A DNA stretch of 64,000 nt from Escherichia phage ECO07P1. Shown here piece by piece: positions 2,499-40,579 of the stretch. The position numbers and the translations under genes were made by a program. The DNA lies in sequence record OP172784; one strand, 5' to 3'. A model generated the notes under the pieces. That model saw only the letters and a program-made list of their open reading frames with translations. It was not told the DNA's origin and ran no database searches. Positions within the stretch are counted from its first letter, which is position 1. The number at the start of each line of letters is the position of its first letter.

Positions 2499-2511
2499 TA
2501 GAATAAATCTA

Positions 2512-2531
2512 GGGACCTCCAGGTCCCTTTT
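2512..2531 (+). terminator. GC hairpin (gggacct/aggtccc) plus T-run after gene 43
   Basis: Inverted repeat followed by TTTTT directly after stop codon. Confidence 0.5.
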
Positions 2532-2615
2532 TCATACAAGTAATATAAATCTATACTTATGAAAAAGAGATGATTCTGGACCCTTTGGATTCCCTAAAAA
2601 TTTTTTCACAAAACT

Positions 2616-2645
2616 GTTTACAAGACCGTTACTCTGTGGTACTAT
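2616..2645 (+). promoter_or_regulatory. T4-type early promoter (GTTTAC, 18-bp spacer, TACTAT)
   Basis: GTTTAC at 2616-2621, -10 TACTAT after TGTGG; A/T-rich upstream tract. Confidence 0.45.
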
Positions 2646-2679
2646 ACAACTATCAACTAATACGGATTTGGAGAATGAA

Positions 2680-3060
2680 ATGAAAATCGCTATTTTGGTT
2701 ATTGCATTAGGTCTTACTGGTTGTGTAGCTCAAGGACCAGTAGTAAATCAGTCTGATGCAGGAAAAATTGTAAACTGTTCAAGCAAATTTTATAATCCTA
2801 ACGTCAAGTGTTATAAAGAGGCTCCAAAACAGACAGTAGAACAAATGCAGGCGAATTTTGACGAAGCTATTCGTCCAGATGAATCTGCTCAAGCATATCG
2901 TAATTCAGATGTAATTACACGCGAAGAAAAAATTGAAAGCTACTGCGCTGAACTTTGGGCTAATTGGGCTAATAATTATCAATGGCGTACTGGTAAAAAT
3001 GCTCCAATGGAGTATGTAGTGAATTCTTATAATTCATGTGTAAAAAATTTGACTAAGTGA
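2680..3060 (+). CDS. Putative lipoprotein (signal peptide with LTGC lipobox), conserved T4-like small ORF
   Basis: ATG at 2680 with GGAG SD (track ORF starts at upstream TTG 2668); N-terminal MKIAILVIALGLTGC. Confidence 0.5.
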   Translation: MKIAILVIALGLTGCVAQGPVVNQSDAGKIVNCSSKFYNPNVKCYKEAPKQTVEQMQANFDEAIRPDESAQAYRNSDVITREEKIESYCAELWANWANNYQWRTGKNAPMEYVVNSYNSCVKNLTK

Positions 3061-3067
3061 GGAAAAC

Positions 3068-3319
3068 ATGGAAACTTTAGTAGCAGGTTCAATTTTTATG
3101 GTTTTAGTTTCAGGCGTGTTGGCTATTATTATATACATGCTTCCATGGTTCATCGCCTTGATGCGTGGGTCAAAATCGACAGTAGGAATCTTTTTCACAT
3201 CTTTACTGTTTAACTGGTCAATTATTGGTTGGTTTATTACATTTATTTGGTCAATTGCAGGTGAAACTAAAAAGTCTGCGCAGCCAAATCAGGTAATTAT
3301 CATCAGAGAGAAGGAATGA
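3068..3319 (+). CDS. imm: Imm, superinfection immunity membrane protein (83 aa)
   Basis: 83-aa two-TM protein matching T4 Imm in length and position between 43 and 42. Confidence 0.8.
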   Translation: METLVAGSIFMVLVSGVLAIIIYMLPWFIALMRGSKSTVGIFFTSLLFNWSIIGWFITFIWSIAGETKKSAQPNQVIIIREKE

Positions 3320-3465
3320 AAAGCAAAATTATAGCAGCATTGCTTTTAATCTTGATGATTATAATAAGTATATACTATAGTGTAACGGTTCCTTGTATGA
3401 TTCCAACTATTATTTTAGGTTGGGGTTTATTACTGTTACAAGTTAAATATGAATGTATCAATTGA
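3316..3465 (+). CDS. Small hydrophobic membrane peptide (49 aa)
   Basis: ATG overlaps imm stop (ATGA); below the ORF-track size cutoff; hydrophobic throughout. Confidence 0.3.
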   Translation: MKSKIIAALLLILMIIISIYYSVTVPCMIPTIILGWGLLLLQVKYECIN

Positions 3466-3472
3466 GGTTTAA

Positions 3473-4213
3473 ATGATTAGTGACTCTATGACAGTTGAAG
3501 AAATCCGTCTTCATTTGGGAACTGCATTAAAGGAAAAAGATTTCGTAGTTGATAAAACTGGTGTTAAAACTATTGAAATTATTGGCGCATCATTTGTAGC
3601 AGATGAACCGTTTATTTTTGGCGCTCTTAATGATGAATACATTCAGCGTGAACTTGAATGGTATAAATCTAAGAGCTTGTTCGTTAAAGATATTCCGGGT
3701 GAAACACCGAAGATTTGGCAACAAGTAGCATCTTCTAAAGGTGAAATTAACTCAAATTATGGTTGGGCTATCTGGTCAGAAGATAACTATGCCCAGTATG
3801 ATATGTGTTTAGCTGAACTTGGTCAAAATCCTGATTCTCGACGTGGTATCATGATTTATACTCGTCCATCTATGCAGTTTGACTACAATAAAGATGGCAT
3901 GTCAGATTTCATGTGTACTAATACAGTACAGTACCTGATTCGTGATAAGAAAGTCAATGCAGTAGTAAGCATGCGCTCAAATGACGTGGTCTTCGGATTC
4001 CGTAATGATTATGCATGGCAAAAATACGTATTAGATAAATTAGTATCTGATTTGAATGCCGGCGATTCAACTCGTCAGTATAAAGCAGGTTCTATTATAT
4101 GGAATGTTGGAAGTCTTCATGTATATTCTCGTCATTTTTACTTGGTTGATCATTGGTGGAATACTGGCGAAACTCATATTGTGAAAAAAGATTATAATGG
4201 TGAGTGGAAATGA
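3473..4213 (+). CDS. 42: dCMP hydroxymethylase gp42 (246 aa)
   Basis: 246 aa, near-identical to remembered T4 gp42 (MISDSMTVEEIRLHLG...). Confidence 0.95.
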   Translation: MISDSMTVEEIRLHLGTALKEKDFVVDKTGVKTIEIIGASFVADEPFIFGALNDEYIQRELEWYKSKSLFVKDIPGETPKIWQQVASSKGEINSNYGWAIWSEDNYAQYDMCLAELGQNPDSRRGIMIYTRPSMQFDYNKDGMSDFMCTNTVQYLIRDKKVNAVVSMRSNDVVFGFRNDYAWQKYVLDKLVSDLNAGDSTRQYKAGSIIWNVGSLHVYSRHFYLVDHWWNTGETHIVKKDYNGEWK

Positions 4214-5052
4214 TTCAATTCGTAATTCCAAGTTATCAGCGTGTCGGGGCAGTTTCTGCCCTTAATATGTTTCCGACTGATTATGAACCCCATATTGTAG
4301 TGCGTGAACATGAAGAAAAAGCTTATTATGATGCTTATGGGTCTAGAGCTAAAATTATAGCTATTCCTGATGATGTTAATGGAATTGCCGGTACTCGTAA
4401 AGCAATTACTGATATGTATGCAGGTCAACGAATCTGGATGATTGATGATGATACTACTATTCGTATGAGTTCAATACGAAAGAGAGACGATAAACGGCGC
4501 GTAGATAAAATTAATCAATTAACTCGTGAACAGTTCTATGAATTGATTCAATACGTTGAGGATGCCATGGATTGCGGGTATTATCATGGCCATGCTCGTC
4601 TACCAATTTTTAAAATTACTTCATCTTGGGGTAATTATCGTGAAAACTCATATGGATTCACGAATACATGGTATGACCTCGGAAAACTTACGACAGAACA
4701 AATTGGGTATGGAAAAATTGATTTATGCGAAGATATGTATGCATTTCTCAATTTAATTAATCAAGGTTATCCGCATTTGGCCTTGTTCAAATATCTAGTT
4801 GTATCTGGAAAATCACACGCTCCCGGTGGGTGTAGTTCAATTCGTAGTAATTCTAAACATAATAGAGCGCTTGAGCAAATCAATAGAGAGTTTCCAGAGC
4901 AAGCTCGTTGGAAAACATCGAATATTGAAAAACGAAAATCGTTGGGTGAAGAAGATGAGCCATTAAAAGTTCTTCGCATGTGTGTTTCGCGTAAAGAAAA
5001 ATCAGAAGCGTTTCATAAGTTTAATGCTATTCATCCAATAGCAGTTGATTAA
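4210..5052 (+). CDS. Putative hydroxymethylcytosine glucosyltransferase, T2/T6 beta-glucosyl-HMC-alpha-glucosyltransferase type (280 aa)
   Basis: ATG at 4210 overlaps gene 42 stop (track ORF uses GTG at 4204); occupies the T4 beta-gt locus between 42 and uvsX; IWMIDDDTT acidic motif; 280 aa is the size I recall for T2/T6 beta-alpha-gt. Confidence 0.55.
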   Translation: MIQFVIPSYQRVGAVSALNMFPTDYEPHIVVREHEEKAYYDAYGSRAKIIAIPDDVNGIAGTRKAITDMYAGQRIWMIDDDTTIRMSSIRKRDDKRRVDKINQLTREQFYELIQYVEDAMDCGYYHGHARLPIFKITSSWGNYRENSYGFTNTWYDLGKLTTEQIGYGKIDLCEDMYAFLNLINQGYPHLALFKYLVVSGKSHAPGGCSSIRSNSKHNRALEQINREFPEQARWKTSNIEKRKSLGEEDEPLKVLRMCVSRKEKSEAFHKFNAIHPIAVD

Positions 5053-5129
5053 TGCCTAAATTTATTGTGTTATAATTACCCTATCTTTAACCAGTGAGGA
5101 AAATATAATGATGCCTATGGAAAAAATGA

Positions 5130-6311
5130 ATGTCTATTGCAGATTTAAAATCCCGTTTGATTAAAGCTTCCACTTCTAAAATGACTGCTGAACTGACTAC
5201 ATCTAAATTCTTTAATGAAAAGGATGTAATCCGTACAAAAATCCCAATGCTTAATATCGCTATTTCCGGTGCGATTGATGGCGGTATGCAGTCTGGTTTA
5301 ACTATTTTTGCAGGTCCTTCTAAACACTTTAAATCAAATATGTCTTTGACTATGGTTGCGGCGTATTTGAACAAATATCCGGACGCGGTTTGTCTATTTT
5401 ATGATAGCGAATTTGGTATTACTCCAGCTTATTTGCGATCCATGGGAGTTGACCCGGAACGAGTAATTCATACACCAATTCAGTCAGTTGAACAACTGAA
5501 AATTGATATGGTGAATCAGCTTGAAGCGATTGAGCGTGGTGAAAAAGTTATTGTATTCATCGACTCAATTGGTAATATGGCTTCCAAGAAAGAAACGGAA
5601 GATGCCTTGAATGAAAAATCTGTGGCAGATATGACTCGTGCTAAATCACTGAAGTCATTATTCCGTATTGTTACTCCTTATTTTAGTATTAAAAACATTC
5701 CATGCGTTGCGGTTAACCATACAATTGAAACAATTGAAATGTTTAGTAAAACCGTGATGACAGGTGGTACAGGCGTAATGTATTCGGCTGATACTGTATT
5801 CATTATCGGTAAGCGCCAGATTAAAGATGGTTCTGATCTTCAGGGGTATCAATTTGTTCTAAATGTAGAAAAATCTCGTACCGTCAAAGAAAAAAGTAAA
5901 TTCTTTATTGATGTTAAATTTGACGGTGGTATCGATCCTTATTCTGGATTATTAGATATGGCTCTTGAATTAGGATTTGTAGTAAAACCTAAAAATGGCT
6001 GGTATGCTCGTGAATTTCTTGATGAAGAAACCGGCGAGATGATTCGCGAAGAAAAATCTTGGCGTGCAAAAGATACCAATTGCACTACATTCTGGGGTCC
6101 TTTATTTAAACATCAGCCATTCCGAGATGCTATTAAACGTGCTTATCAGTTAGGTGCTATTGATAGCAATGAAATTGTTGAAGCTGAAGTTGATGAATTA
6201 ATTAACTCAAAGGTTGAAAAATTTAAATCTCCAGAAAGTAAAAGTAAATCAGCAGCTGATTTAGAAACTGACCTAGAACAGTTAAGTGATATGGAAGAAT
6301 TTAATGAATAA
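5130..6311 (+). CDS. uvsX: UvsX recombinase (RecA-like)
   Basis: 393 aa, near-identical to remembered T4 UvsX. Confidence 0.95.
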   Translation: MSIADLKSRLIKASTSKMTAELTTSKFFNEKDVIRTKIPMLNIAISGAIDGGMQSGLTIFAGPSKHFKSNMSLTMVAAYLNKYPDAVCLFYDSEFGITPAYLRSMGVDPERVIHTPIQSVEQLKIDMVNQLEAIERGEKVIVFIDSIGNMASKKETEDALNEKSVADMTRAKSLKSLFRIVTPYFSIKNIPCVAVNHTIETIEMFSKTVMTGGTGVMYSADTVFIIGKRQIKDGSDLQGYQFVLNVEKSRTVKEKSKFFIDVKFDGGIDPYSGLLDMALELGFVVKPKNGWYAREFLDEETGEMIREEKSWRAKDTNCTTFWGPLFKHQPFRDAIKRAYQLGAIDSNEIVEAEVDELINSKVEKFKSPESKSKSAADLETDLEQLSDMEEFNE

Positions 6312-6648
6312 AGATGATTTAGATTTAGATCTAGAAATTATCGACGAATCCCCCTCTTCGGAGGGGGAAGAAGAAAGAAAAGAACGCCTTTTTAATGAAT
6401 CTCTTAAGATAATTAAATCTGCCATGGAAAATGTTATCCAGGAGATTGTCATTAAACTAGAAGACGGTTCTACACACATTGTGTATGTGACAAAATTAGA
6501 TTGGGTTGATGGAAAAGTCGTAATGGACTTTGCTGTTCTTGACCAAGAAAGAAAAGCTGAGTTAGCTCCTCATGTAGAAAAATGTATTACAATGCAACTA
6601 CAAGATGCATTTAATAAAAGGTCAAAGAAAAAATTTAAATTCTTTTAA
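6304..6648 (+). CDS. 40: gp40 head assembly protein
   Basis: ATG at 6304 overlapping uvsX stop; alternative upstream ATG at 6286; position between uvsX and 41. Confidence 0.6.
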   Translation: MNKDDLDLDLEIIDESPSSEGEEERKERLFNESLKIIKSAMENVIQEIVIKLEDGSTHIVYVTKLDWVDGKVVMDFAVLDQERKAELAPHVEKCITMQLQDAFNKRSKKKFKFF

Positions 6649-6657
6649 GGAGTAAGT

Positions 6658-8326: not shown

Positions 8327-8563
8327 ATGCATATTGTTTTATTTAAACCTACTCCGTATAATGTCAGGAAAAATACTCAATTCAAAGCACTTGTTGCAGA
8401 TACGTGGGAATTGGTGTTAGATATTCCACCAGAAGAAAGTCCTCCATCTGGTCGAGTGGAATTTATTAAGTTTGCTGTGCGCCCTACGAAGCGACAGATT
8501 CGCCAATGCAAAAGATACTTTCGTAAAATCGTCAAGTTAGAGAAACAGTTATTGATGCAGTAA
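8327..8563 (+). CDS. Hypothetical protein (T4 61.4 region)
   Basis: ATG at 8327 with GAGGG SD right after dmd stop; track ORF starts at 8285. Confidence 0.45.
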   Translation: MHIVLFKPTPYNVRKNTQFKALVADTWELVLDIPPEESPPSGRVEFIKFAVRPTKRQIRQCKRYFRKIVKLEKQLLMQ

Positions 8564-8570
8564 AATAGTA

Positions 8571-8600
8571 GTTTACAAGCTGATAGAGTTGTGTTATAGT
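8571..8600 (+). promoter_or_regulatory. T4-type early promoter
   Basis: GTTTAC 8571-8576, 18-bp spacer, TATAGT 8595-8600. Confidence 0.45.
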
Positions 8601-8631
8601 AATTCTATCAGCTAATCGCGGAGAAAAGAAA

Positions 8632-8886
8632 ATGATGCTAGTTAATAGAGAATATCAGTTTAAATCAGAAGAAGATTTGGAAAAATTCGCAAGTGGTTGT
8701 GAACTGAATAGACGCACAGCTAAAGTCATAGGATTAAAACCCTTTACAGTTCTAGATTGTGAAGTTTCTAAATTCCGCAGAGGGTGTTCTATTAGCGGTC
8801 ATGCTCTGGTTGATGGGAACACATTTTTCTTTGTTTTTAGCGTCAGAGAACTTTTATTGATTAACGAACTTGAGGAAATAAAATAG
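8632..8886 (+). CDS. Hypothetical protein
   Basis: 84-aa ORF with GGAG SD. Confidence 0.45.
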   Translation: MMLVNREYQFKSEEDLEKFASGCELNRRTAKVIGLKPFTVLDCEVSKFRRGCSISGHALVDGNTFFFVFSVRELLLINELEEIK

Positions 8887-10031: not shown

Positions 10032-11060
10032 ATGTCATCAATACCTTGGATTGATAATGAGTTTGCATATCGTGCATTAGCTCATTTACCTAAATTTACA
10101 CAAGTAAATAATAGTTCAACTTTTAAATTGCGGTTTAGATGCCCTGTTTGTGGAGATTCAAAAACCGACCAAAATAAAGCTCGTGGATGGTATTATGGCG
10201 ATAATAATGAAGGAAATATTCATTGTTATAACTGTAACTATCATGCACCAATCGGAATATATTTAAAGGAGTTTGAACCCGATTTATATCGTGAGTATAT
10301 CTTTGAAATAAGAAAAGAAAAAGGTAAAAGTCGTCCAGTAGAAAAACCTAAAGAACTTCCTAAACAACCTGAGAAGAAAATAATTAAATCTCTTCCGTCA
10401 TGTGTTAGATTAGATAAACTGGCGGAAGACCATCCAATTATAAAATATGTAAAAGCTCGTTGTATTCCAAAGGATAAATGGAAATATCTTTGGTTTACAA
10501 CCGAATGGCCTAAATTAGTTAATAGTATAGCACCAGGAACATACAAAAAGGAAATACCTGAGCCTCGTCTTGTTATTCCAATTTATAATGCTAATGGAAA
10601 AGCTGAGTCTTTTCAAGGACGTGCATTAAAGAAAGATGCTCCCCAAAAATATATCACCATCAAAGCTTATCCTGAAGCAACAAAAATCTATGGCGTTGAA
10701 CGAGTTAAAGATGGTGATGTATATGTTCTAGAAGGACCTATAGATTCACTTTTTATTGAAAATGGTATAGCTATTACAGGTGGTCAATTAGACCTAGAAA
10801 TTGTTCCATTTAAAGATAGACGTGTATGGGTTTTAGATAATGAACCTCGTCATCCTGACACTATTAAACGAATGACTAAATTGGTTGATGCAGGAGAAAG
10901 GGTTATGTTTTGGGACAAATCTCCCTGGAAATCAAAAGATGTTAATGATATGATTAGAAAGGAAGGTGCAACCCCTGAACAAATTATGGAATATATGAAA
11001 AATAATATTGCGCAGGGGTTGATGGCTAAAATGCGGCTATCTAAATATGCTAAGATTTAA
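10032..11060 (+). CDS. 61: gp61 DNA primase
   Basis: 342 aa; N-terminal zinc ribbon CPVCGDS...CYNCNYH; matches T4 gp61. Confidence 0.95.
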   Translation: MSSIPWIDNEFAYRALAHLPKFTQVNNSSTFKLRFRCPVCGDSKTDQNKARGWYYGDNNEGNIHCYNCNYHAPIGIYLKEFEPDLYREYIFEIRKEKGKSRPVEKPKELPKQPEKKIIKSLPSCVRLDKLAEDHPIIKYVKARCIPKDKWKYLWFTTEWPKLVNSIAPGTYKKEIPEPRLVIPIYNANGKAESFQGRALKKDAPQKYITIKAYPEATKIYGVERVKDGDVYVLEGPIDSLFIENGIAITGGQLDLEIVPFKDRRVWVLDNEPRHPDTIKRMTKLVDAGERVMFWDKSPWKSKDVNDMIRKEGATPEQIMEYMKNNIAQGLMAKMRLSKYAKI

Positions 11061-11327: not shown

Positions 11328-11978
11328 GTGAATTACCAAAAAATTTACTCGGCTTTAATTACAAAAGCTAAATGCCGGCATCTTGGTGGATATAAAGAAC
11401 GCCATCATATAATTCCTAGATGTATGGGAGGAGCAGATGACAAAAACAATCTTGTTGAGTTAACTGCGCGTGAGCATTTTATAGCTCATAGATTATTAAC
11501 CAAAATATATCCAGATGTGAGAGGATTGCATTATGCTGTAAATTTAATGCGATATAATAAAGGTGTTAAATTAACAAGTAGATTAATAGAAACCCTTAAA
11601 ATTCAAAACTCTGTTCTTTTCTCGGGTGAAAATAATCCTAGATATGGCAAGCCGTCATGGATTAAAGGCAAAAAGACCCCAGAAGAAACTAAAGCCAAAA
11701 TGCGTCTAGCTCATAAAGGTAAAATTATATCCGATGAAGCCAAGGCTAATATGAGTAAAGCCCGAAAAGGAAGATTTAGCGGTAAAAATTCACCTCGATA
11801 TGGTTTACCGAATCCAAGACGTGGTGAGATATGGAATTCGTATGATTCGCTTTACGAGTTGTGGGTTTATAATAATAGACCTAAGCGCACAAAATTTAAT
11901 AAAATAGCTGTCAAGGCAGGTTATCCTAATATCTGCTATAGACATATGATAGAAAACTTCATAAGAAAGGAAAAATAA
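11328..11978 (+). CDS. Free-standing HNH homing endonuclease (216 aa), GTG start
   Basis: HNH motif ERHHIIPRCMGGADDKNNLVELTAREHFIAH; repeated NPRYG-type DNA-binding repeats; AAGGA SD before GTG. Confidence 0.8.
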   Translation: MNYQKIYSALITKAKCRHLGGYKERHHIIPRCMGGADDKNNLVELTAREHFIAHRLLTKIYPDVRGLHYAVNLMRYNKGVKLTSRLIETLKIQNSVLFSGENNPRYGKPSWIKGKKTPEETKAKMRLAHKGKIISDEAKANMSKARKGRFSGKNSPRYGLPNPRRGEIWNSYDSLYELWVYNNRPKRTKFNKIAVKAGYPNICYRHMIENFIRKEK

Positions 11979-11979
11979 C

Positions 11980-12498
11980 ATGCCACATTTCAACGAATGT
12001 AGTCATCTGATCGAAGGCGCTGATAAAGCTCAAAATGAATACTGGGATATTCTCGGTGATGAAAAAGACCCGCTGCAAGTTATGCTTGATATGCAGAAAT
12101 CTCTGCAGGTTCGTTTAGCTAAAGATAAACCTGAATATAACCGTCATCCTGATGATTTGGCTACTGCAGGTGAAGTTGTCGATTGGCTGCGTAATCAGAA
12201 AGATTACATTGATGATGAATTCCGCGAACTTCTGACTTCTCTTGGTGGTATGAGCAATGGTGAAAAAGATGCATCTGCTGTATGGAAGCCTTGGAAGTCG
12301 CAGCATGGTGAACGCCGTGAAACTCTAATTACTGATTTGTCTCCTCAAGACCAGTTGGAAATTAAATTCGAAATGATTGATATTCTTCATTTCGTTCTGA
12401 ACATGTTCCAAGGTCTCGGTCTTACGGCTGAAGAAATCTTTAAACTTTATTATCTGAAAAATGCTGAAAACTTTGCTCGTCAAGACCGAGGTTATTAA
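11980..12498 (+). CDS. 56: gp56 dCTPase/dUTPase (MazG-like)
   Basis: 172 aa matching T4 gp56. Confidence 0.9.
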   Translation: MPHFNECSHLIEGADKAQNEYWDILGDEKDPLQVMLDMQKSLQVRLAKDKPEYNRHPDDLATAGEVVDWLRNQKDYIDDEFRELLTSLGGMSNGEKDASAVWKPWKSQHGERRETLITDLSPQDQLEIKFEMIDILHFVLNMFQGLGLTAEEIFKLYYLKNAENFARQDRGY

Positions 12499-12532
12499 TA
12501 TAAATGACGGCTTAAAAGCTGTGAGAATTTAT

Positions 12533-12540
12533 TATAAATA
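12533..12540 (+). promoter_or_regulatory. T4 late promoter TATAAATA upstream of soc
   Basis: Exact TATAAATA about 30 nt upstream of soc ATG. Confidence 0.5.
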
Positions 12541-12570
12541 GTCATGTAATTTAAATAAAAGGAGAATTAC

Positions 12571-12816
12571 ATGGCTAGTACTCGCGGTTATGTTAATATT
12601 AAAACATTTGAGCAAAAATTAGATGGAAATAAGAAAATTGAAGGAAAGGAAATTTCTGTAGCTTTCCCTCTTTATTCTGACGTTCACAAAATTTCTGGTG
12701 CTCATTACCAGATATTCCCTTCAGAAAAAGCAGCATATACTACTGTATACGAAGAAAATCAACGTGATGCATGGATTGCTGCAAACGAAGATCTGTGGAA
12801 AGTAACTGGTGGTTAA
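12571..12816 (+). CDS. soc: Soc, small outer capsid protein
   Basis: 81-aa ORF near-identical to T4 Soc (MASTRGYVNIKTFEQ...). Confidence 0.9.
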   Translation: MASTRGYVNIKTFEQKLDGNKKIEGKEISVAFPLYSDVHKISGAHYQIFPSEKAAYTTVYEENQRDAWIAANEDLWKVTGG

Positions 12817-22680: not shown

Positions 22681-23052
22681 ATGTTTAAAATCAGTAAGAA
22701 GTATCGTATTCGCGAAGGCGAAGAAAAGAAATATCTATTTTCTGCTATTTATAGGAATGGTTCTATTAGTAATGTAATATCTACAAGCGAATTTATCGTT
22801 GAAGATATGAAGGGTAATAATGTTACAATGATTAGTACAGCATCTGGAAATGATGGAAAAATTCTTCACAGTTTTCAGAGTAATGTTCTAATTTATGATG
22901 AAGAGTTTGACCTATTCGAAGAAGTTACAGAAGATTTTGATTTTGGATGCACCATCACTATGAAATCTGGTGACCCTCTTTCTTTTACAGTTAAAGATGA
23001 AAGAAGTCGCTTGAGAATTATTAGTCTCCTTCAAGCCATTAAATTTGAGTGA
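22681..23052 (+). CDS. Hypothetical protein
   Basis: 123-aa ORF. Confidence 0.45.
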   Translation: MFKISKKYRIREGEEKKYLFSAIYRNGSISNVISTSEFIVEDMKGNNVTMISTASGNDGKILHSFQSNVLIYDEEFDLFEEVTEDFDFGCTITMKSGDPLSFTVKDERSRLRIISLLQAIKFE

Positions 23053-23056
23053 AATT

Positions 23057-23317
23057 ATGAAATATGTTAATCGTTCTATCGCGGCAATAGTATTAGCAGT
23101 ATCTTTAGTAGGATGTACTGATGCTGATAATGCAACCAAAGTTTTGTCTTCAAGTGGTTTTACTAATATTGAAATCACTGGATATAATTGGTTCGGTTGC
23201 TCTGAAAATGATTTCCAACATACTGGATTTCGTGCTATTGGACCTACCGGGCAGAAAGTAGAAGGAACCGTATGTTCTGGTCTATTCTTCAAGGATTCGA
23301 CTATCCGTTTTAAATAA
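23057..23317 (+). CDS. Putative lipoprotein (86 aa)
   Basis: ATG at 23057; signal peptide with LVGC lipobox. Confidence 0.5.
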   Translation: MKYVNRSIAAIVLAVSLVGCTDADNATKVLSSSGFTNIEITGYNWFGCSENDFQHTGFRAIGPTGQKVEGTVCSGLFFKDSTIRFK

Positions 23318-23334
23318 AAGGCCTTCGGGCCTTT
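23317..23334 (+). terminator. CUUCGG-type hairpin after lipoprotein gene
   Basis: aaaggcc-ttcg-ggccttt. Confidence 0.45.
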
Positions 23335-23386
23335 AGCTTTATGATTACCGGAGTATAATATTCCCGAAACCAAACGAGGATAAGTG

Positions 23387-25204
23387 ATGATTAAGAATGA
23401 AATTAAAATTCTGAGCGATATTGAACATATCAAAAAGCGTAGCGGCATGTATATTGGCTCTTCTGCTAATGAAATGCATGAGCGCTTTCTGTTTGGTAAA
23501 TGGGAAAGTGTTCAGTATGTACCTGGTCTTGTTAAGCTTATTGATGAAATTATCGATAACTCAGTAGATGAAGGTATTCGTACTAAGTTTAAATTCGCGA
23601 ATAAAATTAATGTTACTATTAAAAACAATCAAGTAACAGTTGAAGATAACGGTCGTGGTATTCCACAGGCGATGGTTAAAACACCTACCGGTGAAGAAAT
23701 TCCTGGTCCTGTTGCTGCATGGACTATTCCAAAAGCAGGTGGTAACTTCGGTGATGACAAAGAACGCGTCACTGGCGGTATGAACGGTGTTGGTTCTAGT
23801 TTAACTAACATTTTTTCTGTGATGTTTGTCGGTGAAACTGGCGACGGTCAAAATAATATTGTAGTTCGTTGTTCAAACGGCATGGAAAATAAATCATGGG
23901 AAACTATTCCTGGAAAATGGAAAGGAACTCGCGTTACTTTCATTCCTGATTTTATGTCATTTGAAACTAATGAGCTATCTCAAGTTTATCTTGACATTAC
24001 ACTAGATCGTCTCCAGACACTTGCAGTAGTTTATCCTGATATTCAATTTACCTTTAATGGTAAAAAGGTTCAGGGCAATTTTAAGAAGTATGCACGCCAG
24101 TATGATGAGCATGCTATCGTTCAAGAACAGGAAAATTGCTCTATTGCGGTTGGTCGTTCACCTGATGGTTTTCGTCAATTAACATACGTCAATAACATTC
24201 ATACTAAGAATGGTGGTCATCACATTGACTGTGTTATGGATGATATTTGTGAAGACCTTATTCCACAAATCAAACGTAAATTTAAAATTGATGTAACTAA
24301 AGCACGTGTTAAAGAATGTTTGACTATCGTTATGTTTGTTCGTGATATGAAAAACATGCGATTTGATTCTCAAACTAAAGAGCGTTTGACTTCTCCATTT
24401 GGTGAAATTCGTAGTCATATTCAGCTTGATGCTAAAAAGATTTCACGTGCTATTTTAAATAATGAAGCAATTTTAATGCCAATTATTGAAGCTGCTTTGG
24501 CTCGTAAATTGGCGGCAGAAAAAGCGGCAGAAACTAAAGCAGCTAAAAAGGCTTCTAAAGCTAAGGTTCATAAACATATTAAAGCGAATCTTTGTGGTAA
24601 AGATGCTGACACTACTCTTTTCTTGACTGAGGGTGATTCCGCTATCGGATATCTTATTGATGTTCGTGATAAAGAACTTCATGGTGGTTATCCATTACGT
24701 GGTAAAGTTCTCAACAGTTGGGGTATGTCATATGCTGATATGCTTAAAAACAAAGAACTGTTTGATATTTGCGCAATCACTGGATTAGTTCTTGGTGAAA
24801 AAGCCGAAAACTTGAATTATCATAATATTGCTATTATGACCGATGCTGACCATGATGGTCTAGGAAGCATTTATCCTTCTCTGCTCGGATTTTTTAGTAA
24901 TTGGCCAGAACTGTTTGAACAAGGAAGAATTCGCTTTGTCAAAACTCCTGTAATCATCGCTCAGGTCGGTAAAAAACAAGAATGGTTTTATACAGTCGCT
25001 GAATATGAGAGTGCTAAAGATGCTCTACCTAAACATAGCATCCGTTATATTAAGGGACTTGGCTCTTTGGAAAAATCTGAATATCGTGAGATGATTCAAA
25101 ATCCAGTATATGATGTTGTTAAACTTCCTGAGAACTGGAAAGAGCTTTTTGAAATGCTCATGGGAGATAATGCTGACCTTCGTAAAGAATGGATGAGTCA
25201 GTAG
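23387..25204 (+). CDS. 39: Topoisomerase II large subunit gp39, uninterrupted (contains the region encoded by T4 gene 60)
   Basis: 605 aa; GyrB-like ATPase N-terminus; C-terminal third is continuous with the sequence I recall for T4 gp60 (NIAIMTDADHDGLGSIYPSLLGFF...). Confidence 0.9.
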   Translation: MIKNEIKILSDIEHIKKRSGMYIGSSANEMHERFLFGKWESVQYVPGLVKLIDEIIDNSVDEGIRTKFKFANKINVTIKNNQVTVEDNGRGIPQAMVKTPTGEEIPGPVAAWTIPKAGGNFGDDKERVTGGMNGVGSSLTNIFSVMFVGETGDGQNNIVVRCSNGMENKSWETIPGKWKGTRVTFIPDFMSFETNELSQVYLDITLDRLQTLAVVYPDIQFTFNGKKVQGNFKKYARQYDEHAIVQEQENCSIAVGRSPDGFRQLTYVNNIHTKNGGHHIDCVMDDICEDLIPQIKRKFKIDVTKARVKECLTIVMFVRDMKNMRFDSQTKERLTSPFGEIRSHIQLDAKKISRAILNNEAILMPIIEAALARKLAAEKAAETKAAKKASKAKVHKHIKANLCGKDADTTLFLTEGDSAIGYLIDVRDKELHGGYPLRGKVLNSWGMSYADMLKNKELFDICAITGLVLGEKAENLNYHNIAIMTDADHDGLGSIYPSLLGFFSNWPELFEQGRIRFVKTPVIIAQVGKKQEWFYTVAEYESAKDALPKHSIRYIKGLGSLEKSEYREMIQNPVYDVVKLPENWKELFEMLMGDNADLRKEWMSQ

Positions 25205-25233
25205 TTTACTTTACCACAAGGATGTGGTATAAT
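25204..25233 (+). promoter_or_regulatory. T4-type early promoter upstream of rIIA.1/rIIA
   Basis: GTTTAC 25204-25209, 18-bp spacer, TATAAT 25228-25233. Confidence 0.5.
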
Positions 25234-25258
25234 TAATTGGGCAAATGAGGATATTGAA

Positions 25259-25462
25259 ATGAAATCATATAAAGTAAATTTAGAACTTTTTGATAAAGCA
25301 GTTCATCGAGAATATAGAATCATTCAACGCTTTTTCGATATGGGAGAAGCCGAAGAGTTTAAAAACCGCTTTAAGGATATTAGAGATAAAATTCAATCCG
25401 ACACCGCAACTAAAGATGAATTACTAGAAGTTGCTGAAGTTATTAAACGCAATATGAATTAA
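25259..25462 (+). CDS. Hypothetical protein (rIIA.1 position)
   Basis: 67-aa ORF with GAGGA SD. Confidence 0.5.
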
Positions 25463-25472
25463 TGAGGAAATT

Positions 25473-27650
25473 ATGATTATCACCACTGAAAAAGAAACAA
25501 TTCTTGGTAATGGTGCTAAATCAAAAGCATTTAGCATCACAGCATCTCCTAAAGTATTCAAAATTCTGTCATCTGATTTGTATACAAACAAGATTCGCGC
25601 TGTAGTCCGTGAATTGATTACCAACATGATTGATGCCCATGCTCTTAATGGAAATCCTGAAAAATTTATCATTCAAGTTCCAGGACGATTAGATCCGCGA
25701 TTTGTTTGTCGAGATTTTGGTCCAGGTATGAGCGATTTTGATATTCAAGGTGATGATAATTCTCCTGGTTTGTATAATTCATACTTCAGTTCATCTAAGG
25801 CTGAATCTAATGATTTCATTGGTGGATTTGGTTTAGGTTCTAAATCTCCGTTTAGTTATACTGATACATTTAGTATTACTTCATATCATAAAGGTGAAAT
25901 TCGTGGTTATGTAGCTTACATGGATGGTGATGGTCCACAGATTAAACCTACATTCGTAAAAGAAATGGGTCCAGATGATAAAACTGGTATTGAAATCGTA
26001 GTTCCAGTTGAAGAAAAAGACTTTAGAAACTTTGCTTATGAAGTTTCTTATATCATGCGACCATTCAAAGATTTGGCTATCATTAATGGTCTTGACCGTG
26101 AAATTGATTATTTTCCGGATTTTGATGACTATTACGGTGTAAATCCAGAAAGATACTGGCCAGATCGTGGTGGATTGTATGCTATCTATGGCGGCATTGT
26201 TTATCCTATCGAAGGTGTTATTAGAGAACGTAACTGGTTAAGCATTCGCAATGAAGTGAATTATATTAAGTTTCCAATGGGTTCACTTGATATTGCTCCA
26301 TCGCGTGAGGCTCTTTCGCTGGATGATCGTACTCGTAAAAATATTATTGAGCGTGTTAAAGAGCTTAGTGAGAAGGCATTCAATGAAGATGTAAAACGAT
26401 TTAAAGAATCTACATCTCCTCGTCATACATACCGTGAATTGATGAAGATGGGATATTCTGCTCGAGATTATATGATTAGTAATTCGGTCAAATTCACGAC
26501 TAAAAATCTGTCATATAAGAAGATGCAAAGCATGTTTGAACCTGACAGTAAGTTATGCAATGCAGGGGTTGTGTATGAAGTAAATCTTGACCCTCGACTG
26601 AAACGCATTAAGCAAAGCCATGAAACTTCAGCCGTTGCGTCAAGCTATCGTCTGTTTGGTATTAATACGACAAAAATTAATATTGTTATTGATAATACTA
26701 AAAATCGTGTTAATATTGTCCGTGGATTAGCACGCGCGTTAGATGATAGTGAATTTAATAACACCTTAAATATTCATCACAATGAGCGGCTTCTGTTTAT
26801 TAATCCGGAAGTAGAATCGCAGATTGATTTGCTTCCTGATATTATGGCAATGTTTGAAAGTGATGAAGTTAACATTCATTATTTGTCAGAAATTGAAGCT
26901 TTAGTTAAAAGTTATATTCCAAAGGCAGTAAAAAGTACAGCTCCTCGTCCTAAAGCTGCTGCTGCATTTAAGTTTGAAATTAAAGACGGGCGCTGGGAAA
27001 AAGAGGAACTATTTACGCTCACATCAGAAGCAGATGAAATTACTGGTTATGTAGCATACATGCATCGTTCTGATATTTTCTCTATGGATGGTACTACATC
27101 GCTTTGTCATCCATCTATGAATATTTTGATTCGTATGGCTAATCTTATTGGCATTAATGAATTTTATGTTATTCGTCCGCTTTTGCAGAAAAAGGTAAAA
27201 GAACTCGGTCAGTGCCAATGTATTTTTGAAGCTTTGCGTGATTTATATGTAGATGCTTTTGATGATGTAGATTATGATAAGTATGTAGGTTATTCAAGTT
27301 CAGCTAAACGATATATTGATAAAATTATCAAGTATCCTGAACTAGATTTTATGATGAAGTACTTCAGTGTAGATGAAGTTTCTGAAGAATATACACGACT
27401 CGCTAATATGGTTAGTTCATTACAGGGTGTATATTTTAATGGTGGAAAAGATACCATTGGTCATGACATCTGGACAGTAACTAATCTTTTTGATGAATTA
27501 TCACGTAATGCTTCAAAAAACAGTGATAAAATGGTTGCTGAGTTTACCAAGAAATTCCGTATTGTTTCCGACTTCATCGGTTATCGCAACTCTTTAAGTG
27601 ATGATGAAGTTTCCCAAATCGCTAAAACTATGAAGGCCCTTGCGGCCTAA
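25473..27650 (+). CDS. rIIA: rIIA protein
   Basis: 725 aa, matches T4 rIIA size; GHKL-like ATPase N-terminus. Confidence 0.95.
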
Positions 27651-31815: not shown

Positions 31816-33144
31816 ATGCAACTGAATAATCGCGATTTAAAAAGTATCATTGATAATGAAGCATTGGCTTATGCTATGTACACGGTTGAAAATCGTGCTA
31901 TCCCAAATATGATTGATGGATTTAAGCCAGTTCAACGATTTGTTATTGCTCGAGCTCTTGATTTGGCACGGGGAAATAAAGATAAGTTTCACAAACTCGC
32001 TTCTATTGCAGGTGGTGTAGCTGACCTTGGATATCATCATGGTGAAAACTCTGCGCAAGACGCGGGGGCTTTGATGGCTAATACTTGGAATAATAACTTT
32101 CCTTTGTTAGATGGTCAAGGAAACTTTGGTTCTCGTACTGTTCAAAAAGCAGCGGCAAGTCGTTATATTTTTGCTCGTGTAAGTAAAAATTTCTATAACG
32201 TATATAAAGATACTGAATATGCTCCGGTACATCAAGATAAAGAACACATTCCGCCTGCTTTTTATTTGCCTATTATTCCTACCGTTCTTCTTAATGGTGT
32301 TTCCGGTATTGCAACTGGTTATGCAACTTACATTCTTCCTCATAGCGTTTCTTCTGTCAAGAAAGCTGTATTACAAGCTCTTCAAGGAAAGAAAGTAACT
32401 AAACCGAAGGTAGAATTCCCAGAATTTCGTGGTGAAGTCGTTGAAATTGACGGTCAATATGAAATTCGTGGAACGTACAAGTTTACTTCACGAACTCAAA
32501 TGAATATCACTGAGATTCCGTATAAGTATGATCGTGAAACTTATGTGAGTAAAATCTTAGACCCGCTTGAAGATAAAGGCTTCATTACGTGGGATGATGC
32601 TTGTGGTGAGCATGGTTTTGGATTTAAAATTAAATTCCGCAAAGAATACTCTTTGAGCGATAACGAAGAAGAACGCCATGCAAAAATCATGAAAGACTTC
32701 GGGTTGATTGAGCGTCGTTCCCAGAATATTACCGTTATTAATGAGAAAGGAAAACTACAAGTTTACGATAACGTAGTTGATTTAATTAAAGACTTCGTTG
32801 AAGTTCGTAAAACTTATGTCCAAAAACGAATTGATAACAAAATCAAAGAAACTGAATCAGCATTTCGTTTAGCCTTTGCCAAGGCGCATTTCATTAAGAA
32901 AGTAATTTCAGGTGAAATTGTTGTACAAGATAAAACTCGCAAAGAACTGACCGAAGAACTTTCTAAAATTGATATGTATTCTTCTTATGTTGATAAACTA
33001 GTTGGAATGAACATTTTTCATATGACTTCCGACGAAGCAAAGAAACTTGCTGAAGAAGCTAAAGCCAAAAAAGAAGAAAACGAATATTGGAAAACTACTG
33101 ATGTAGTTACAGAATACACCAAAGATTTAGAGGAAATCAAATGA
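31816..33144 (+). CDS. 52: Topoisomerase II medium subunit gp52 (GyrA-like)
   Basis: 442 aa, matches T4 gp52. Confidence 0.95.
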   Translation: MQLNNRDLKSIIDNEALAYAMYTVENRAIPNMIDGFKPVQRFVIARALDLARGNKDKFHKLASIAGGVADLGYHHGENSAQDAGALMANTWNNNFPLLDGQGNFGSRTVQKAAASRYIFARVSKNFYNVYKDTEYAPVHQDKEHIPPAFYLPIIPTVLLNGVSGIATGYATYILPHSVSSVKKAVLQALQGKKVTKPKVEFPEFRGEVVEIDGQYEIRGTYKFTSRTQMNITEIPYKYDRETYVSKILDPLEDKGFITWDDACGEHGFGFKIKFRKEYSLSDNEEERHAKIMKDFGLIERRSQNITVINEKGKLQVYDNVVDLIKDFVEVRKTYVQKRIDNKIKETESAFRLAFAKAHFIKKVISGEIVVQDKTRKELTEELSKIDMYSSYVDKLVGMNIFHMTSDEAKKLAEEAKAKKEENEYWKTTDVVTEYTKDLEEIK

Positions 33145-36145: not shown

Positions 36146-36802
36146 TTATTTAGCCCTTCCTAATATTCTGGCCGCCTGAGAACATATTGATTCAAGGCGG
36201 TCATTACTTATATGATCATTTCTATACCAGTACATGGTTATTGTTCCAGCATAGATGTTATCCAAATTAAAATATGGACAACTGTACATGTAATTTATTT
36301 CGGGAGTAGGCTTTTTAGTTGGTAAAAAAGCAAATTTTGAGTTGGAATAATAATGACGTCCATTTAAATGAACTGTATATTCATCCATAGTTTTATCAAC
36401 AGGATATCCTCCAAGTGATTTTTCACTTATTGTTGAAGGTAATTTTCCTTCATATGCTATAATATCAACAAAATAGTTTAAGTTTTTAGGGCGGAAAGAA
36501 TACACCGCACTAAAGTCTGCCTCAGATGATATGTGAACTATCTGGAGTTGTTCCAGGGCGACAGATTCAAAGCGTGCGTTTCTTTCCTTTTCAATAATTT
36601 CACGGTATGTTTCATACTTTGATTGCTTATAGTACTCAAAGAAACTATCTCCCCTATACCAAACAATCGCCATCATAAATAAAAGAATTACGACAGCTAC
36701 TCGGGAAGCAAGAACCTTCCCGGTAGCATTATCTTTGAACAAGCGATCTAGAACACCCAACAGAATATCAGAGGGCGAAAATGATATTCTAGGTGCTGCC
36801 AT
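36146..36802 (-). CDS. t: Holin T
   Basis: 218 aa, single N-terminal TM helix; matches T4 T holin. Confidence 0.95.
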   Translation of the reverse strand: MAAPRISFSPSDILLGVLDRLFKDNATGKVLASRVAVVILLFMMAIVWYRGDSFFEYYKQSKYETYREIIEKERNARFESVALEQLQIVHISSEADFSAVYSFRPKNLNYFVDIIAYEGKLPSTISEKSLGGYPVDKTMDEYTVHLNGRHYYSNSKFAFLPTKKPTPEINYMYSCPYFNLDNIYAGTITMYWYRNDHISNDRLESICSQAARILGRAK

Positions 36803-36820
36803 AGACCCTCCTTTTAAGGA

Positions 36821-36828
36821 TATTTATA
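36821..36828 (-). promoter_or_regulatory. T4 late promoter TATAAATA (- strand) upstream of t
   Basis: Reverse complement of tatttata, overlapping gene 38 stop, about 19 nt upstream of the t ATG. Confidence 0.45.
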
Positions 36829-37375
36829 CGTAATTCCTGAATAAACGCTTATACCAAGGCTTCCATTCTTTTTCAGGCCATTTAGGAAATTCACCACCTA
36901 AATGCTCATGCTTTTCTAAAAGAGCAAAGAACCGTTTAAGGTTTTGATAATAGAATTTTTCCTTTTTATTTGCAACTGAAGCTTCGATCATATTATTCAA
37001 TACTTGGAATTCTTTATATAATTCTTCAATTTTTCTATTACGAATTAAAACGCGTTTATATGTTTCGTCTTCTTTCCAACCATCATCAGTCCATATATCA
37101 AATTCGCCGGGTTCATCAAAAGTTATACCAACCGGGCTTCCTATGTCAGTTATTAAGATTTCTTCTTTATTAAAAGTCCAAGCCCGTTTACCGCGATGGT
37201 CTTCTTCATAAATCCAATCCTGAATACGTTCATCAAATACAACTGCGTATCCTTCTTTAGGTTCTAAAGGTTTTTTAATTGTTGAATGAGCAGGAAGACC
37301 GAGGCCTTTAACCGGTTTGTAATTTTCTTCTTTGTAAAATTCTTTAGTGTCAAAATAATAATGATATATTTTCAT
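36824..37375 (-). CDS. 38: gp38 tail-fibre assembly chaperone (T4-type, 183 aa)
   Basis: Near-identical to remembered T4 gp38 (MKIYHYYFDTKEFYKEENY...). Confidence 0.9.
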   Translation of the reverse strand: MKIYHYYFDTKEFYKEENYKPVKGLGLPAHSTIKKPLEPKEGYAVVFDERIQDWIYEEDHRGKRAWTFNKEEILITDIGSPVGITFDEPGEFDIWTDDGWKEDETYKRVLIRNRKIEELYKEFQVLNNMIEASVANKKEKFYYQNLKRFFALLEKHEHLGGEFPKWPEKEWKPWYKRLFRNYV

Positions 37376-37382
37376 ATTTAGA

Positions 37383-37398
37383 AGGGGCCGAAGCCCCT
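37383..37398 (-). other. CUUCGG-type hairpin between genes 37 and 38
   Basis: aggggc-ttcg-gcccct on the - strand; no T-run. Confidence 0.35.
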
Positions 37399-37402
37399 CT
37401 CC

Positions 37403-40400
37403 TTATGCTAAACGAACGATATAGTTAAAAGCAATGTTTTTAACCGTGTTTTCTGTATTACCTGTACTATTTACAGTGATAGTATGACCATGCGAGCCAA
37501 TTGCTACCGTGTGGGTATGAGCACCGATACCTACAGTATGGGTATGAGCACCAATACCTACTGTGTGAGCATGGTTACCCGTAGCGCTAGTAGTTCCTGA
37601 CCAACTATGGGTGTGGGCACCGTCTGAAGAAGTTTTGGCCATATTCGACGCTGCAGTAGCACCGCTCACGGTTCCAGTGATTTTAGCGTTGCCGTTTGGA
37701 CCTGCACTATTGTATCCATCATAGAATATGCTAGTGGGTATGCCGCCTTGCATCTGAGGGCCTGAACGAGCGTGTTGGTGCGCACCAGCGGAACTAGTAT
37801 TACCACTCACTGTATGGCTATGGTTGCCGGTGGTATTACTGGTCTTAGTACCATAATCAAAGCTTGAAGTCGTTTTGCTACCGTAATCAAAACTTGATGT
37901 GGTTTTAGTACCTAAGTCAGTACTTGAAGCCGATGCACTATGGCTATGAGCCTTAACACCATCTTCTTCTGCGCTCAAAACATCACGACCACTTGGTTTA
38001 CCCTTGATAGTTTGCCCGCGCATATCAGGCAGAGAGCCGGAAGGATACACCGCAGCTAACTTAGGATACAAGCCAACATCAAATGTTTGACCTTCCATTA
38101 TGGCATAACCTTCAGGAGGTGTATCAGTAGGCCAAGGAATCGGAGCTCCAATAGGATAACTTGAAACAATATCAGTTTTAAGTGATTCAATCGTACTGTT
38201 TAAGTTAGCAAAATTACCAGAACCACCAGTAATATTACCATCAGTACCAAGAGTAGCAGCACCGGCAATAATTTTACCAGGTGTGCGGAAGTCACCGGTA
38301 CGACGGAATTCCCAACTTATATCGGTTCCGGTAGTACTAGTACCTTGGTGATAATGGACACGGAAGTCTCCTTGGGCAATTAAGGTACCAATAGAATAAG
38401 TACTATCACCCTTTACATACCGTTGTTTAACAATAGGAATGTATTCAGAAGTAGCAGTACGCTCTATATTCATATAAATTGGAGCTCTTACGTTTACATC
38501 GTTCTGAGATGCAAAGGAACCACAACCCGTTGGGCGAACTCCATCAGAAGCCTCAATATCTATATAAGCATTTTGTCCTAATTGCATTCTAAAGTTGGCA
38601 TTAATGCGAGAGTTACTATTTATAGTAGTTAAAGCATTATTTTGATCTACTATAAAAGAATCTCTTCCTAACCCAACCATGCCATCGTTTAATCCTATTC
38701 TCACAGGTCTCAAAGAGCTGTGAATGTCTCCGCTTTCGCCTTCATTTTGATTGGTTGGAATAATATAGAAGTTGGCTTCTGAACGACGGAAAATAGCGCC
38801 ATATTCGGAATTCCAAATTCTTAATGCATTAGCAGTTCCACCAATTTTTACTTGGCCGGTAATAGAAGAACCACCTTGGACAAACAAACCGTTAGACATA
38901 GTAACATTGCCACCGAAAGAACCTGTACCGGAGGCACTTATATTTCCAAGGCCTATGATATGACCTGTTTCGACAGTTCCGTTAAATTTAAAGTTAACCG
39001 GACCTACCGTTTGACCTGATGCAGGATTAGTACGTTGAGCGTAAAAATAATAACCTTGCCCATCAGCTACTTCAAAAACGGTTTCACGACTACGATCACC
39101 AGATGCGTTAAATGAATTACCCCACACTTTAACTGTAACAGGGCTTTTGTTTTGACCTGAGCGTGTGCCACTATTCCAGTATATGCTTCTAGTACCATCT
39201 ACAGCCGTCGGAGCATTAAATTGGAATCCCTGATTATCAGGTCCATCAATAATTATACCTTTATTAAGACGAAAAGCTAATGTAGAATCAATATTACCTG
39301 TTGCAGCGTTAAAGCTAATACTGTTAGCACCGGTTACTAGTTTAAGAATACCCGGGTTAACTTCCATGCCTTCTTGAGTATTAATATTAGTTTTGCCTTT
39401 ACCACGGAAATAGTGGTTCATTTTACCGCCTGAGTTATAGCCAATATGTGTCTGGCCGTCTCCACCAGTGTTTCCATCAGCTTGTGTTTGAACCGATAAA
39501 AAGGCAACGTTGGTTCCAGGCATAATCCATGTTGTGCCTTGATCTTCTGAGCGTCCAAATAATGCTTTACGTGTACTACGGAAACTGTCAGGAGTAATAG
39601 AAGCAACAGAATATCCACCGCCAACTAGATCAAATACACCGGTTTTTTTGTATGACAAGCCAGTTACAGTGTCACCGAGAACAAGATACTTATCGCCCAT
39701 TACACCGACGTTACCATAATCACTAGACGGGAAATCTGCAGTGAATGTACCTAATGCAAGGCTATTACGCCCAGCCATTCGGCCGTCGTTACGAATACCA
39801 TATTGTTTAGATGATGGAGTATTACCCGTCCACCAAGACATTTCATCTGCTTGGCCAGTCTGAGCTGTACAGATTTCATGCCACATGGTTCCGGCAGCTT
39901 TAGCGCGAACTTTACGAAGATAGTTTATACCGTTTGTTTCACCGGTTCCAGGATAAACATAGTTAACCAAAGATTGAGAATCATATTGCCCAAAGGCTTT
40001 GGCATCGTGAATAACAGTATCAACCGCAATGCGTTTAGTTACTAACGAATCTGATGCTAAAATACGGTTAGCTTGAAATTCACCGCCGTTTATAGAACGG
40101 AAATAGAATTCGCTATTAATAATGCTTCCGGTTCCTTGTCTAACTCTAAGACGTATTTCACCGTCAGTTGTAGTTTGAGGACGAGCATATATAACGCCTC
40201 GTTCAATGCCATCGGCATTTTCAAACCAAAGATGGGCATTGGAAGTATCATTTGAGGCTCTTGTATAAAATGAACCTTGTGTAGATCTGAAAACTTTTGC
40301 AGTTATGCCTTCAGTAGAACCAATAGGTCCATTTACGGTCATTCCACCAGTTTGTACATAATCGCCGTTTAATTTCAAAAGACCATTGATAGTCACATTT

Positions 40401-40579
40401 CCATCAACTTGCCCGCCTTTAGCAAAACCCAGATCAATGATATTTCCTAAATCGTCTTTAGTAAAAATTGTTCTATCTTTTAAGTTTATAGCCAATTCAC
40501 CTTCGGCTAATACTGAAGCAGCAGGACGAGCACCTGCGGTTTTGCTTCTTTTAAATTGTATTTGTTTTAAAGTAGCCAT
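37403..40579 (-). CDS. 37: gp37 long tail fibre distal subunit (receptor-binding), T4-type with His-box tip
   Basis: 1058 aa; C-terminal GAHTHTV His-box repeats and conserved extreme C-terminus [11 protein letters not shown]. Confidence 0.95.
37483..37575 (-). repeat. About three tandem 27-bp coding repeats (His boxes GxHxHTV) in gene 37
   Basis: Near-identical units gtgggtatgagcaccgatacctacagt / atgggtatgagcaccaatacctactgt. Confidence 0.7.
37842..37935 (-). repeat. Tandem ~30-bp coding repeats (TTSSFDYG units) in gene 37
   Basis: Protein shows [22 protein letters not shown]; DNA units accataatcaaagcttgaagt / accgtaatcaaaacttgatgt. Confidence 0.6.

Follow-up and report, generated by a model that had tools for sequence, protein, structure and literature searches.

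Gene 39 of Escherichia phage ECO07P1 is an unsplit topoisomerase large-subunit gene free of the MobA/bypass cassette

The locus analyzed here lies within a 64,000-nt stretch of the genome of Escherichia phage ECO07P1 (sequence record OP172784; hereinafter, the window). The six-frame ORF listing contains a single open frame on the plus strand, 23384..25204, which encodes 606 aa from a GTG codon; reading from the ATG at 23387, which is also where the identical record OP172786.1 places the start, yields a gene 39 of 605 aa that is free of stops and frameshifts to its end (Table 1). Base composition is flat along the gene (GC 0.32-0.40) and no foreign island was found. The genome neighborhood follows the order of the T4 gene 39 region, with goF, 39.2 and 39.1 located upstream and rIIA.1, rIIA (725 aa) and rIIB (312 aa) located downstream. 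Between 39.2 and 39.1, there is a 123-aa ORF (22681..23052; phrog_622, weakly goF-like) that is extra relative to T4, and T6 has an ORF at this position that is likewise 372 nt long. Gene 39.1 itself encodes 86 aa with a lipoprotein-like N-terminus (...LAVSLVGC...), compared with the 65 aa annotated in T4.

Table 1. Features of the gene 39 locus and its partner gene; positions are those of the window.
Feature	Position	Strand	Basis
Hairpin AAAGGCC-TTCG-GGCCTTT, C(UUCG)G tetraloop, directly 3' of the 39.1 stop codon	23317..23334	+	read by eye
AGCTTTA, 11 nt, TATAAT; resembles a T4 MotA-type middle promoter	23336..23359	+	read by eye
Shine-Dalgarno-like GAGGA, 6 nt 5' of ATG 23387	23376..23380	+	read from sequence; function inferred
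Gene 39, unsplit large subunit (GyrB/ParE-like ATPase + TOPRIM) of T-even type II DNA topoisomerase	23387..25204	+	ORF, Pfam, 8ylu_C match, T2/T6 identity, OP172786.1 annotation
TOPRIM acidic motif EGDSA, aa 415-419	24629..24643	+	computed motif position; within gp39 in T4
64-nt 'parental' segment, replaced by a 1106-1117-nt MobA/bypass cassette in T4-type phages; includes the region in which MobA nicks gene 39 of T2	24805..24868	+	blastn and codon alignment
TOPRIM DxD motif DADHDG, aa 486-491, followed by Leu492 (CTA)	24842..24862 (motif 24842..24859)	+	codon comparison with T4 gene 60
rIIA.1, 67 aa, directly 3' of gene 39 as it is 3' of gene 60 in T4	25259..25462	+	Pfam T4_RIIA1, E = 1.4e-33; T4 synteny
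Gene 52, GyrA/ParC-like DNA-cleavage subunit, 442 aa, gp39 partner	31816..33144	+	ORF; Pfam DNA_topoisoIV, E = 6.7e-77

Two of the upstream signals in Table 1, the hairpin and the AGCTTTA-11 nt-TATAAT arrangement, were recognized by eye, and the latter, by its resemblance to T4 middle promoters, is a candidate middle promoter of gene 39. A promoter and terminator consensus scan of positions 22900..25600 returned no terminators and fewer promoter-like sites than shuffled sequence, and flagged neither of these two signals.

The domain organization of the predicted protein, gp39, was assessed by Pfam and PDB searches. The Pfam search identified an N-terminal GHKL ATPase domain (HATPase_c, aa 47-149; score 38.4 bits, cut-off 26.4), the transducer (DNA_gyraseB, PF00204, aa 250-384; score 51.1 bits, cut-off 27) and TOPRIM_C (aa 519-604), which also exceeds its curated cut-off, while the Pfam Toprim model itself had no match in gp39 at E <= 0.001. 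Among solved structures, the ATPase-domain chain 9imj_A matches aa 1-380. Motif positions place both TOPRIM acidic motifs, EGDSA (from aa 415) and DADHDG (from aa 486), in one chain. Gene 39 thus encodes a B-type subunit of a type IIA topoisomerase, with the GHKL ATPase, the transducer and both TOPRIM motifs present and an A-type partner gene available. These observations, namely the intact frame, the three Pfam domains and the colinearity with T4 gp39 and gp60 described below, bear out the sequence-only reading that one 605-aa ORF spans both the gp39 region and the region that T4 encodes separately as gene 60.

The closest relatives of this gene are unsplit as well. Over positions 23000-25600, the window shows 100% identity with ECO07P3 (OP172786.1), an Escherichia phage of the genus Tequatrovirus (Straboviridae, Tevenvirinae) in which the identical ORF is labelled 'DNA topoisomerase large subunit', and it matches hundreds of further T4-like phages at 98-99% identity. 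Gene 39 of T2 (AP018813) and that of T6 (AP018814) are each a CDS of 1818 nt at 2447..4264, and their products align with gp39 without gaps, with 603 of the 605 aa identical in T2 (differences F70L and T173D) and 604 of the 605 in T6 (Q526H). At the nucleotide level, the T2 and T6 genes show about 3.5-4% silent divergence from the window, and their neighbors are the same, with 39.1 upstream and rIIA.1 and rIIA downstream.

In the PDB search, the full-length match to gp39 (residues 1-605, 1388 bits) is 8ylu_C, the T6 gp39 chain from the T6 topoisomerase II cryo-EM set (PMC11461880). An engineered T4 gp39-gp60 fusion (8yo3_C) matches as well, and chains of human Top2 alpha and beta, yeast Top2, ParE and GyrB are significant although much more distant hits (E about 1e-36 to 1e-60, compared with 0 for T6). 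Bacterial GyrB and ParE and the N-terminal half of eukaryotic topoisomerase II share the order of GHKL ATPase, transducer and TOPRIM with gp39 but are distant in sequence. A further difference is that the T4 topoisomerase relaxes DNA instead of supercoiling it. The topoisomerase II of T2 and T6 consists of two subunits, and T6 gp39 and gp52 form an active ATP-dependent relaxing enzyme (PMC11461880). Given the near-identity to T2 and T6 gp39 and the presence of gene 52, gp39 and gp52 should form a two-subunit enzyme of the T2/T6 type, and the identity of 604 of 605 residues to the active T6 protein points to a likely ATP-dependent topoisomerase activity.

For comparison with T4, we used positions 1-8000 of the reference genome (NC_000866), in which gene 39 is annotated at 3778..5328, the mobA remnant at 3654..3767, 60.1 at 2971..3351 and gene 60 at 2458..2990 (as a join), with the bypass region at 2803..2852. 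In a blastn alignment, positions 23055-24804 of the window correspond to T4 5661-3911 with 95.6% identity, and positions 24869-25562 correspond to T4 2793-2100 with 98.0% identity. Together with the codon-level alignment, these matches set the breakpoints at 24804/24805 and 24868/24869, so that only 64 nt lie between them, as opposed to 1117 nt in T4; the same interval is 1106 nt in HY01, 1107 nt in GRNsp7 and 64 nt in both T2 and T6. Local protein alignment agrees with this layout: aa 1-473 of gp39 correspond to T4 gp39 1-473, and aa 472-605 align with T4 gp60 27-160, colinearity with gp60 proper extending over about residues 30-160 (about aa 476-605 of the single ORF).

Across the junction, the codons of the window run uninterrupted as GGT GAA AAA GCC / GAA AAC TTG AAT TAT CAT AAT ATT GCT ATT ATG ACC and then GAT GCT GAC CAT GAT GGT CTA GGA AGC / ATT TAT CCT (slashes at the junction boundaries). 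In T4, by contrast, GAA AAA GCG is followed by a 43-aa C-terminal extension of gp39 (FEEKEDGEW...RKNL and a stop codon) that the window lacks, and the mobA pseudogene and 60.1, both missing from this locus, are located between genes 39 and 60. T4 gene 60 opens with a unique 30-aa N-terminus and continues with a diverged counterpart of the segment that was replaced, in which 33 of 45 nt are identical to the window, then with GGA-TAG, a hairpin and the 50-nt gap, and resumes with TTA GGT TCT ATT TAT CCT. T4 splits the TOPRIM acidic motifs between gp39 and gp60 whereas the window keeps them in one chain. The flanking coding sequences of the two phages are 96-98% identical.

The 50-nt coding gap of T4 would fall between 24859 and 24860 of the window. 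At this point, Gly491 is encoded by GGT rather than by the take-off codon GGA, CTA (Leu492) follows directly, and there is neither a stop codon nor a hairpin. The T4 take-off hairpin motif (GGATAGCCTTCGGGCTATCTATAG), allowing up to 3 mismatches, has no match anywhere in the window, and a tblastn search with the intact MobA of HY01 found nothing at gene 39, its only match in the window being a paralogue at 11328..11603. The gene is not divided into two ORFs with insert-derived extensions and has 0 extra residues relative to T2 and T6 gp39. Thus, the locus contains none of the parts of the T4 insertion, that is, the gp39 extension, mobA/60.1, the gp60 extension or the 50-nt gap. The alignments with the T4 39-mobA-60 region and with T2 gene 39, which the sequence-only reading had named as the check on its claims, accordingly show the T2 form and not the T4 insertion: the segment carrying a mob endonuclease is absent (64 nt in place of 1117 nt, with the HY01 MobA search blank at the locus), and so is the 50-nt bypass, the codons GAT GGT CTA GGA AGC being continuous and the hairpin motif unmatched.

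A continuous ORF of this kind could, in principle, be an artefact of assembly or annotation, or belong to a gene that still requires recoding through a cryptic frameshift or hop. We found nothing that supports such an explanation; all 605 codons are open, the protein is colinear without gaps with T2 and T6 gp39 and with a solved structure, and hundreds of independently sequenced phages have the same continuous junction. The probability of an artefact or of recoding is accordingly negligible, and this explanation can be considered effectively refuted already.

One local discrepancy with the T4 reference concerns codons 326-328 of gp39, which read LIR in T4 and FDS in the window (about 24362..24370). 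T2 and T6 gp39 agree with the window at these codons, and the nucleotide alignment of the window with T4 contains two gap openings. The LIR of NC_000866 probably reflects two frameshift errors in the old sequence that compensate each other, rather than a property of the window.

The distribution of the unsplit form among phages was surveyed with a 126-nt junction query (positions 24775-24900 of the window) because a count of near-full-length matches (508 in number, and left out for this reason) joins pieces up to 1800 nt apart and so would let T4-type records pass as unsplit. The junction query matched 784 phage records, and in 708 of them most of the query aligns as a single piece. Sorted by best identity, the 784 records comprise 63 at 99% or above, 400 at 95-99% and 21 at 90-95%, the rest being more distant T4-like phages. 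In T4-type records, the 32-nt right flank alone matches. A query with the 1117-nt T4 cassette, in turn, retrieved 43 phage records, several of which are T4 laboratory strains or RefSeq/GenBank duplicates. With about 700 records containing the continuous junction compared with 43 containing the cassette, unsplit gene 39 is the norm, and the split, bypassed version of T4 is the rare exception.

The origin of the T4 arrangement has been investigated previously. Relative to related phages, the T4 topoisomerase large-subunit gene is split by the mobA insertion (review by Edgell et al., PMC2988022). The T4 39-mobA-60 locus, with MobA and the 50-nt bypass, is the subject of Huang et al. 1988 and Bonocora et al. 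2011, as cited in bioRxiv 10.1101/2022.08.31.505936. By the account of Bonocora et al. 2011 given in that preprint, intact MobA nicks T2 gene 39 and, in mixed infections, copies the split gene together with the 50-nt insert into T2, and the insert, which is located about 20 nt 3' of the nick, shields the invaded allele. The same preprint maps the element in six clades by comparison with 'parental' genomes, gives its length as 1097-1106 nt, and reports that 55-75 nt of gene sequence are lost on insertion (64 nt in HY01), with the nick site lying inside the replaced homologous region.

The window retains a segment within this 55-75-nt range, with T2-type sequence around the nick site (Table 1); its size of 64 nt matches the deletion reported for HY01, and the breakpoints reproduce the published cassette boundaries. 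The segment is identical to that of T2 in 62 of 64 nt, and both differences are silent. Because of this near-identity to the T2 target, we infer that MobA may be able to nick this locus, and the cassette to home into it, in co-infection with a MobA-positive phage. What weighs against such susceptibility is the two silent differences themselves, given that one of them, ACC (about 24839..24841) where T2 has ACT, is close to the reported position of the MobA nick.

The sequence-only reading went one step further and described the locus as looking like the uninvaded state. This description holds insofar as the locus is cassette-free, keeps the parental 64 nt and has the T2/T6 architecture; as regards its history, 'cassette-free (naive) allele' is the safer wording because a clean reversion looks the same as a locus that was never invaded. 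Such a restoration would have occurred if an ancestor of the phage carried the MobA/bypass cassette and the unsplit form was regained ('cured') through recombination with a naive co-infecting T-even phage. T-even genomes are mosaic, and within 180 nt on either side of the junction the SNPs form a patchwork among the naive phages T2 and T6 and the cassette-bearing phages T4, HY01 and GRNsp7, with no flank SNP in this interval segregating with cassette status among these five. The flanks are, moreover, no farther from those of the cassette-bearing HY01 and GRNsp7 (96.8-98.7% identity) than from those of T2 and T6 (95.3-98.1%), and GRNsp7, which has the cassette, nevertheless matches a rare allele elsewhere in the window (an HNH endonuclease gene in place of dam, see below) at 99.0%. 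A cured allele nonetheless appears unlikely, considering that no residues of the C-terminal or N-terminal extensions are left, that the 64-nt segment is the parental one (as opposed to the 33 of 45 nt shared with the diverged copy in the T4 cassette), that homing is biased towards gain, and that the naive allele is far more common, so that simple inheritance is the more economical explanation. Imprecise cassette loss, as described for the Aeromonas and Campylobacter clades (bioRxiv 10.1101/2022.08.31.505936), is excluded because extension remnants are absent. That the locus is a clean revertant of a once-invaded one, or that the silent ACC alters its susceptibility to MobA, seems quite improbable, and there is no positive sign of either; if one of the two were true, the phage would be a natural variant for studying cassette loss or resistance.

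We found no sequence that contradicts the unsplit, cassette-free reading, and it is almost certain that this gene is the unsplit gene 39 of a Tequatrovirus, a MobA-naive allele encoding the large subunit of a two-subunit topoisomerase with gp52. The gene encodes a whole GyrB/ParE-like subunit as one 605-aa chain with the GHKL ATPase, the transducer and a complete TOPRIM. Together with gp52, this chain should assemble into a two-subunit, A2B2-type enzyme, an ATP-dependent type IIA topoisomerase resembling the T2 and T6 enzymes. The retained 64 nt are the very segment that the cassette replaces in T4 and the minority of its relatives whose gene it has divided into 39 and 60, which makes this allele MobA-naive. 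The unsplit two-subunit form, the homing of MobA into T2 and the 'parental' 64-nt segment have all been published already, and the arrangement is ordinary for T-even phages, so the significance of the locus lies mainly in its correct annotation. The three-subunit enzyme of T4 and the hop in gene 60 are the product of a mobile MobA cassette present in a minority of relatives, and cassette-free alleles are both its natural targets and the comparison set that, in the published work, defined the cassette boundaries.

Other loci of the window also bear on mobile endonuclease genes. A 216-aa ORF with a GTG start (11328..11978, plus strand; phrog_655) encodes a homing endonuclease with HNH and NUMOD3 domains, the first 92 aa of which share 50% identity with HY01 MobA. 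It is located between gene 61 (10032..11060) and gene 56 (11980..12498), which is the position of dam in T4, and a tblastn search of all 64 kb of the window for homologues of Dam found none. Of about 529 matching phage records, only 29 (e.g., fPS-90, JE01 and GRNsp7) have this allele, in which HNH takes the place of dam, and there it is labelled 'homing endonuclease'. The phage thus lacks MobA at gene 39 yet carries a MobA-like paralogue elsewhere. At the adjacent gene 56 (dCTPase; 11965..12571), nucleotide identity with T4 falls to only 75.5%, against 93-96% in the flanks; segF, which T4 has between 56 and soc, is absent, and the gene 56 locus is consistent with a SegF-naive state.

Further differences from T4 include a goF-like ORF of 84 aa (8632..8886; phrog_2980), which is inserted as an extra ORF at 8551..8878 between 61.4 and sp, and a 282-aa ORF (4204..5052, plus strand; phrog_842, E = 8e-88) for a beta-glucosyl-HMC-alpha-glucosyltransferase, which stands in for the T4 beta-glucosyltransferase and segA (T4 25496..23556). 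Because of this replacement, the phage is predicted to have HMC glucosylation of the T2/T6 type. On the minus strand, a late-gene block (36146..40579) encodes the holin t (218 aa), a T4-type gp38 (183 aa) and the distal tail fibre protein gp37 (1058 aa). Given that the block holds T4-type gp38 together with gp37, the tail-fibre adhesin genes are arranged as in T4, and the combination of this arrangement with glucosylation and gene 39 loci of the T2/T6 type represents typical T-even mosaicism.
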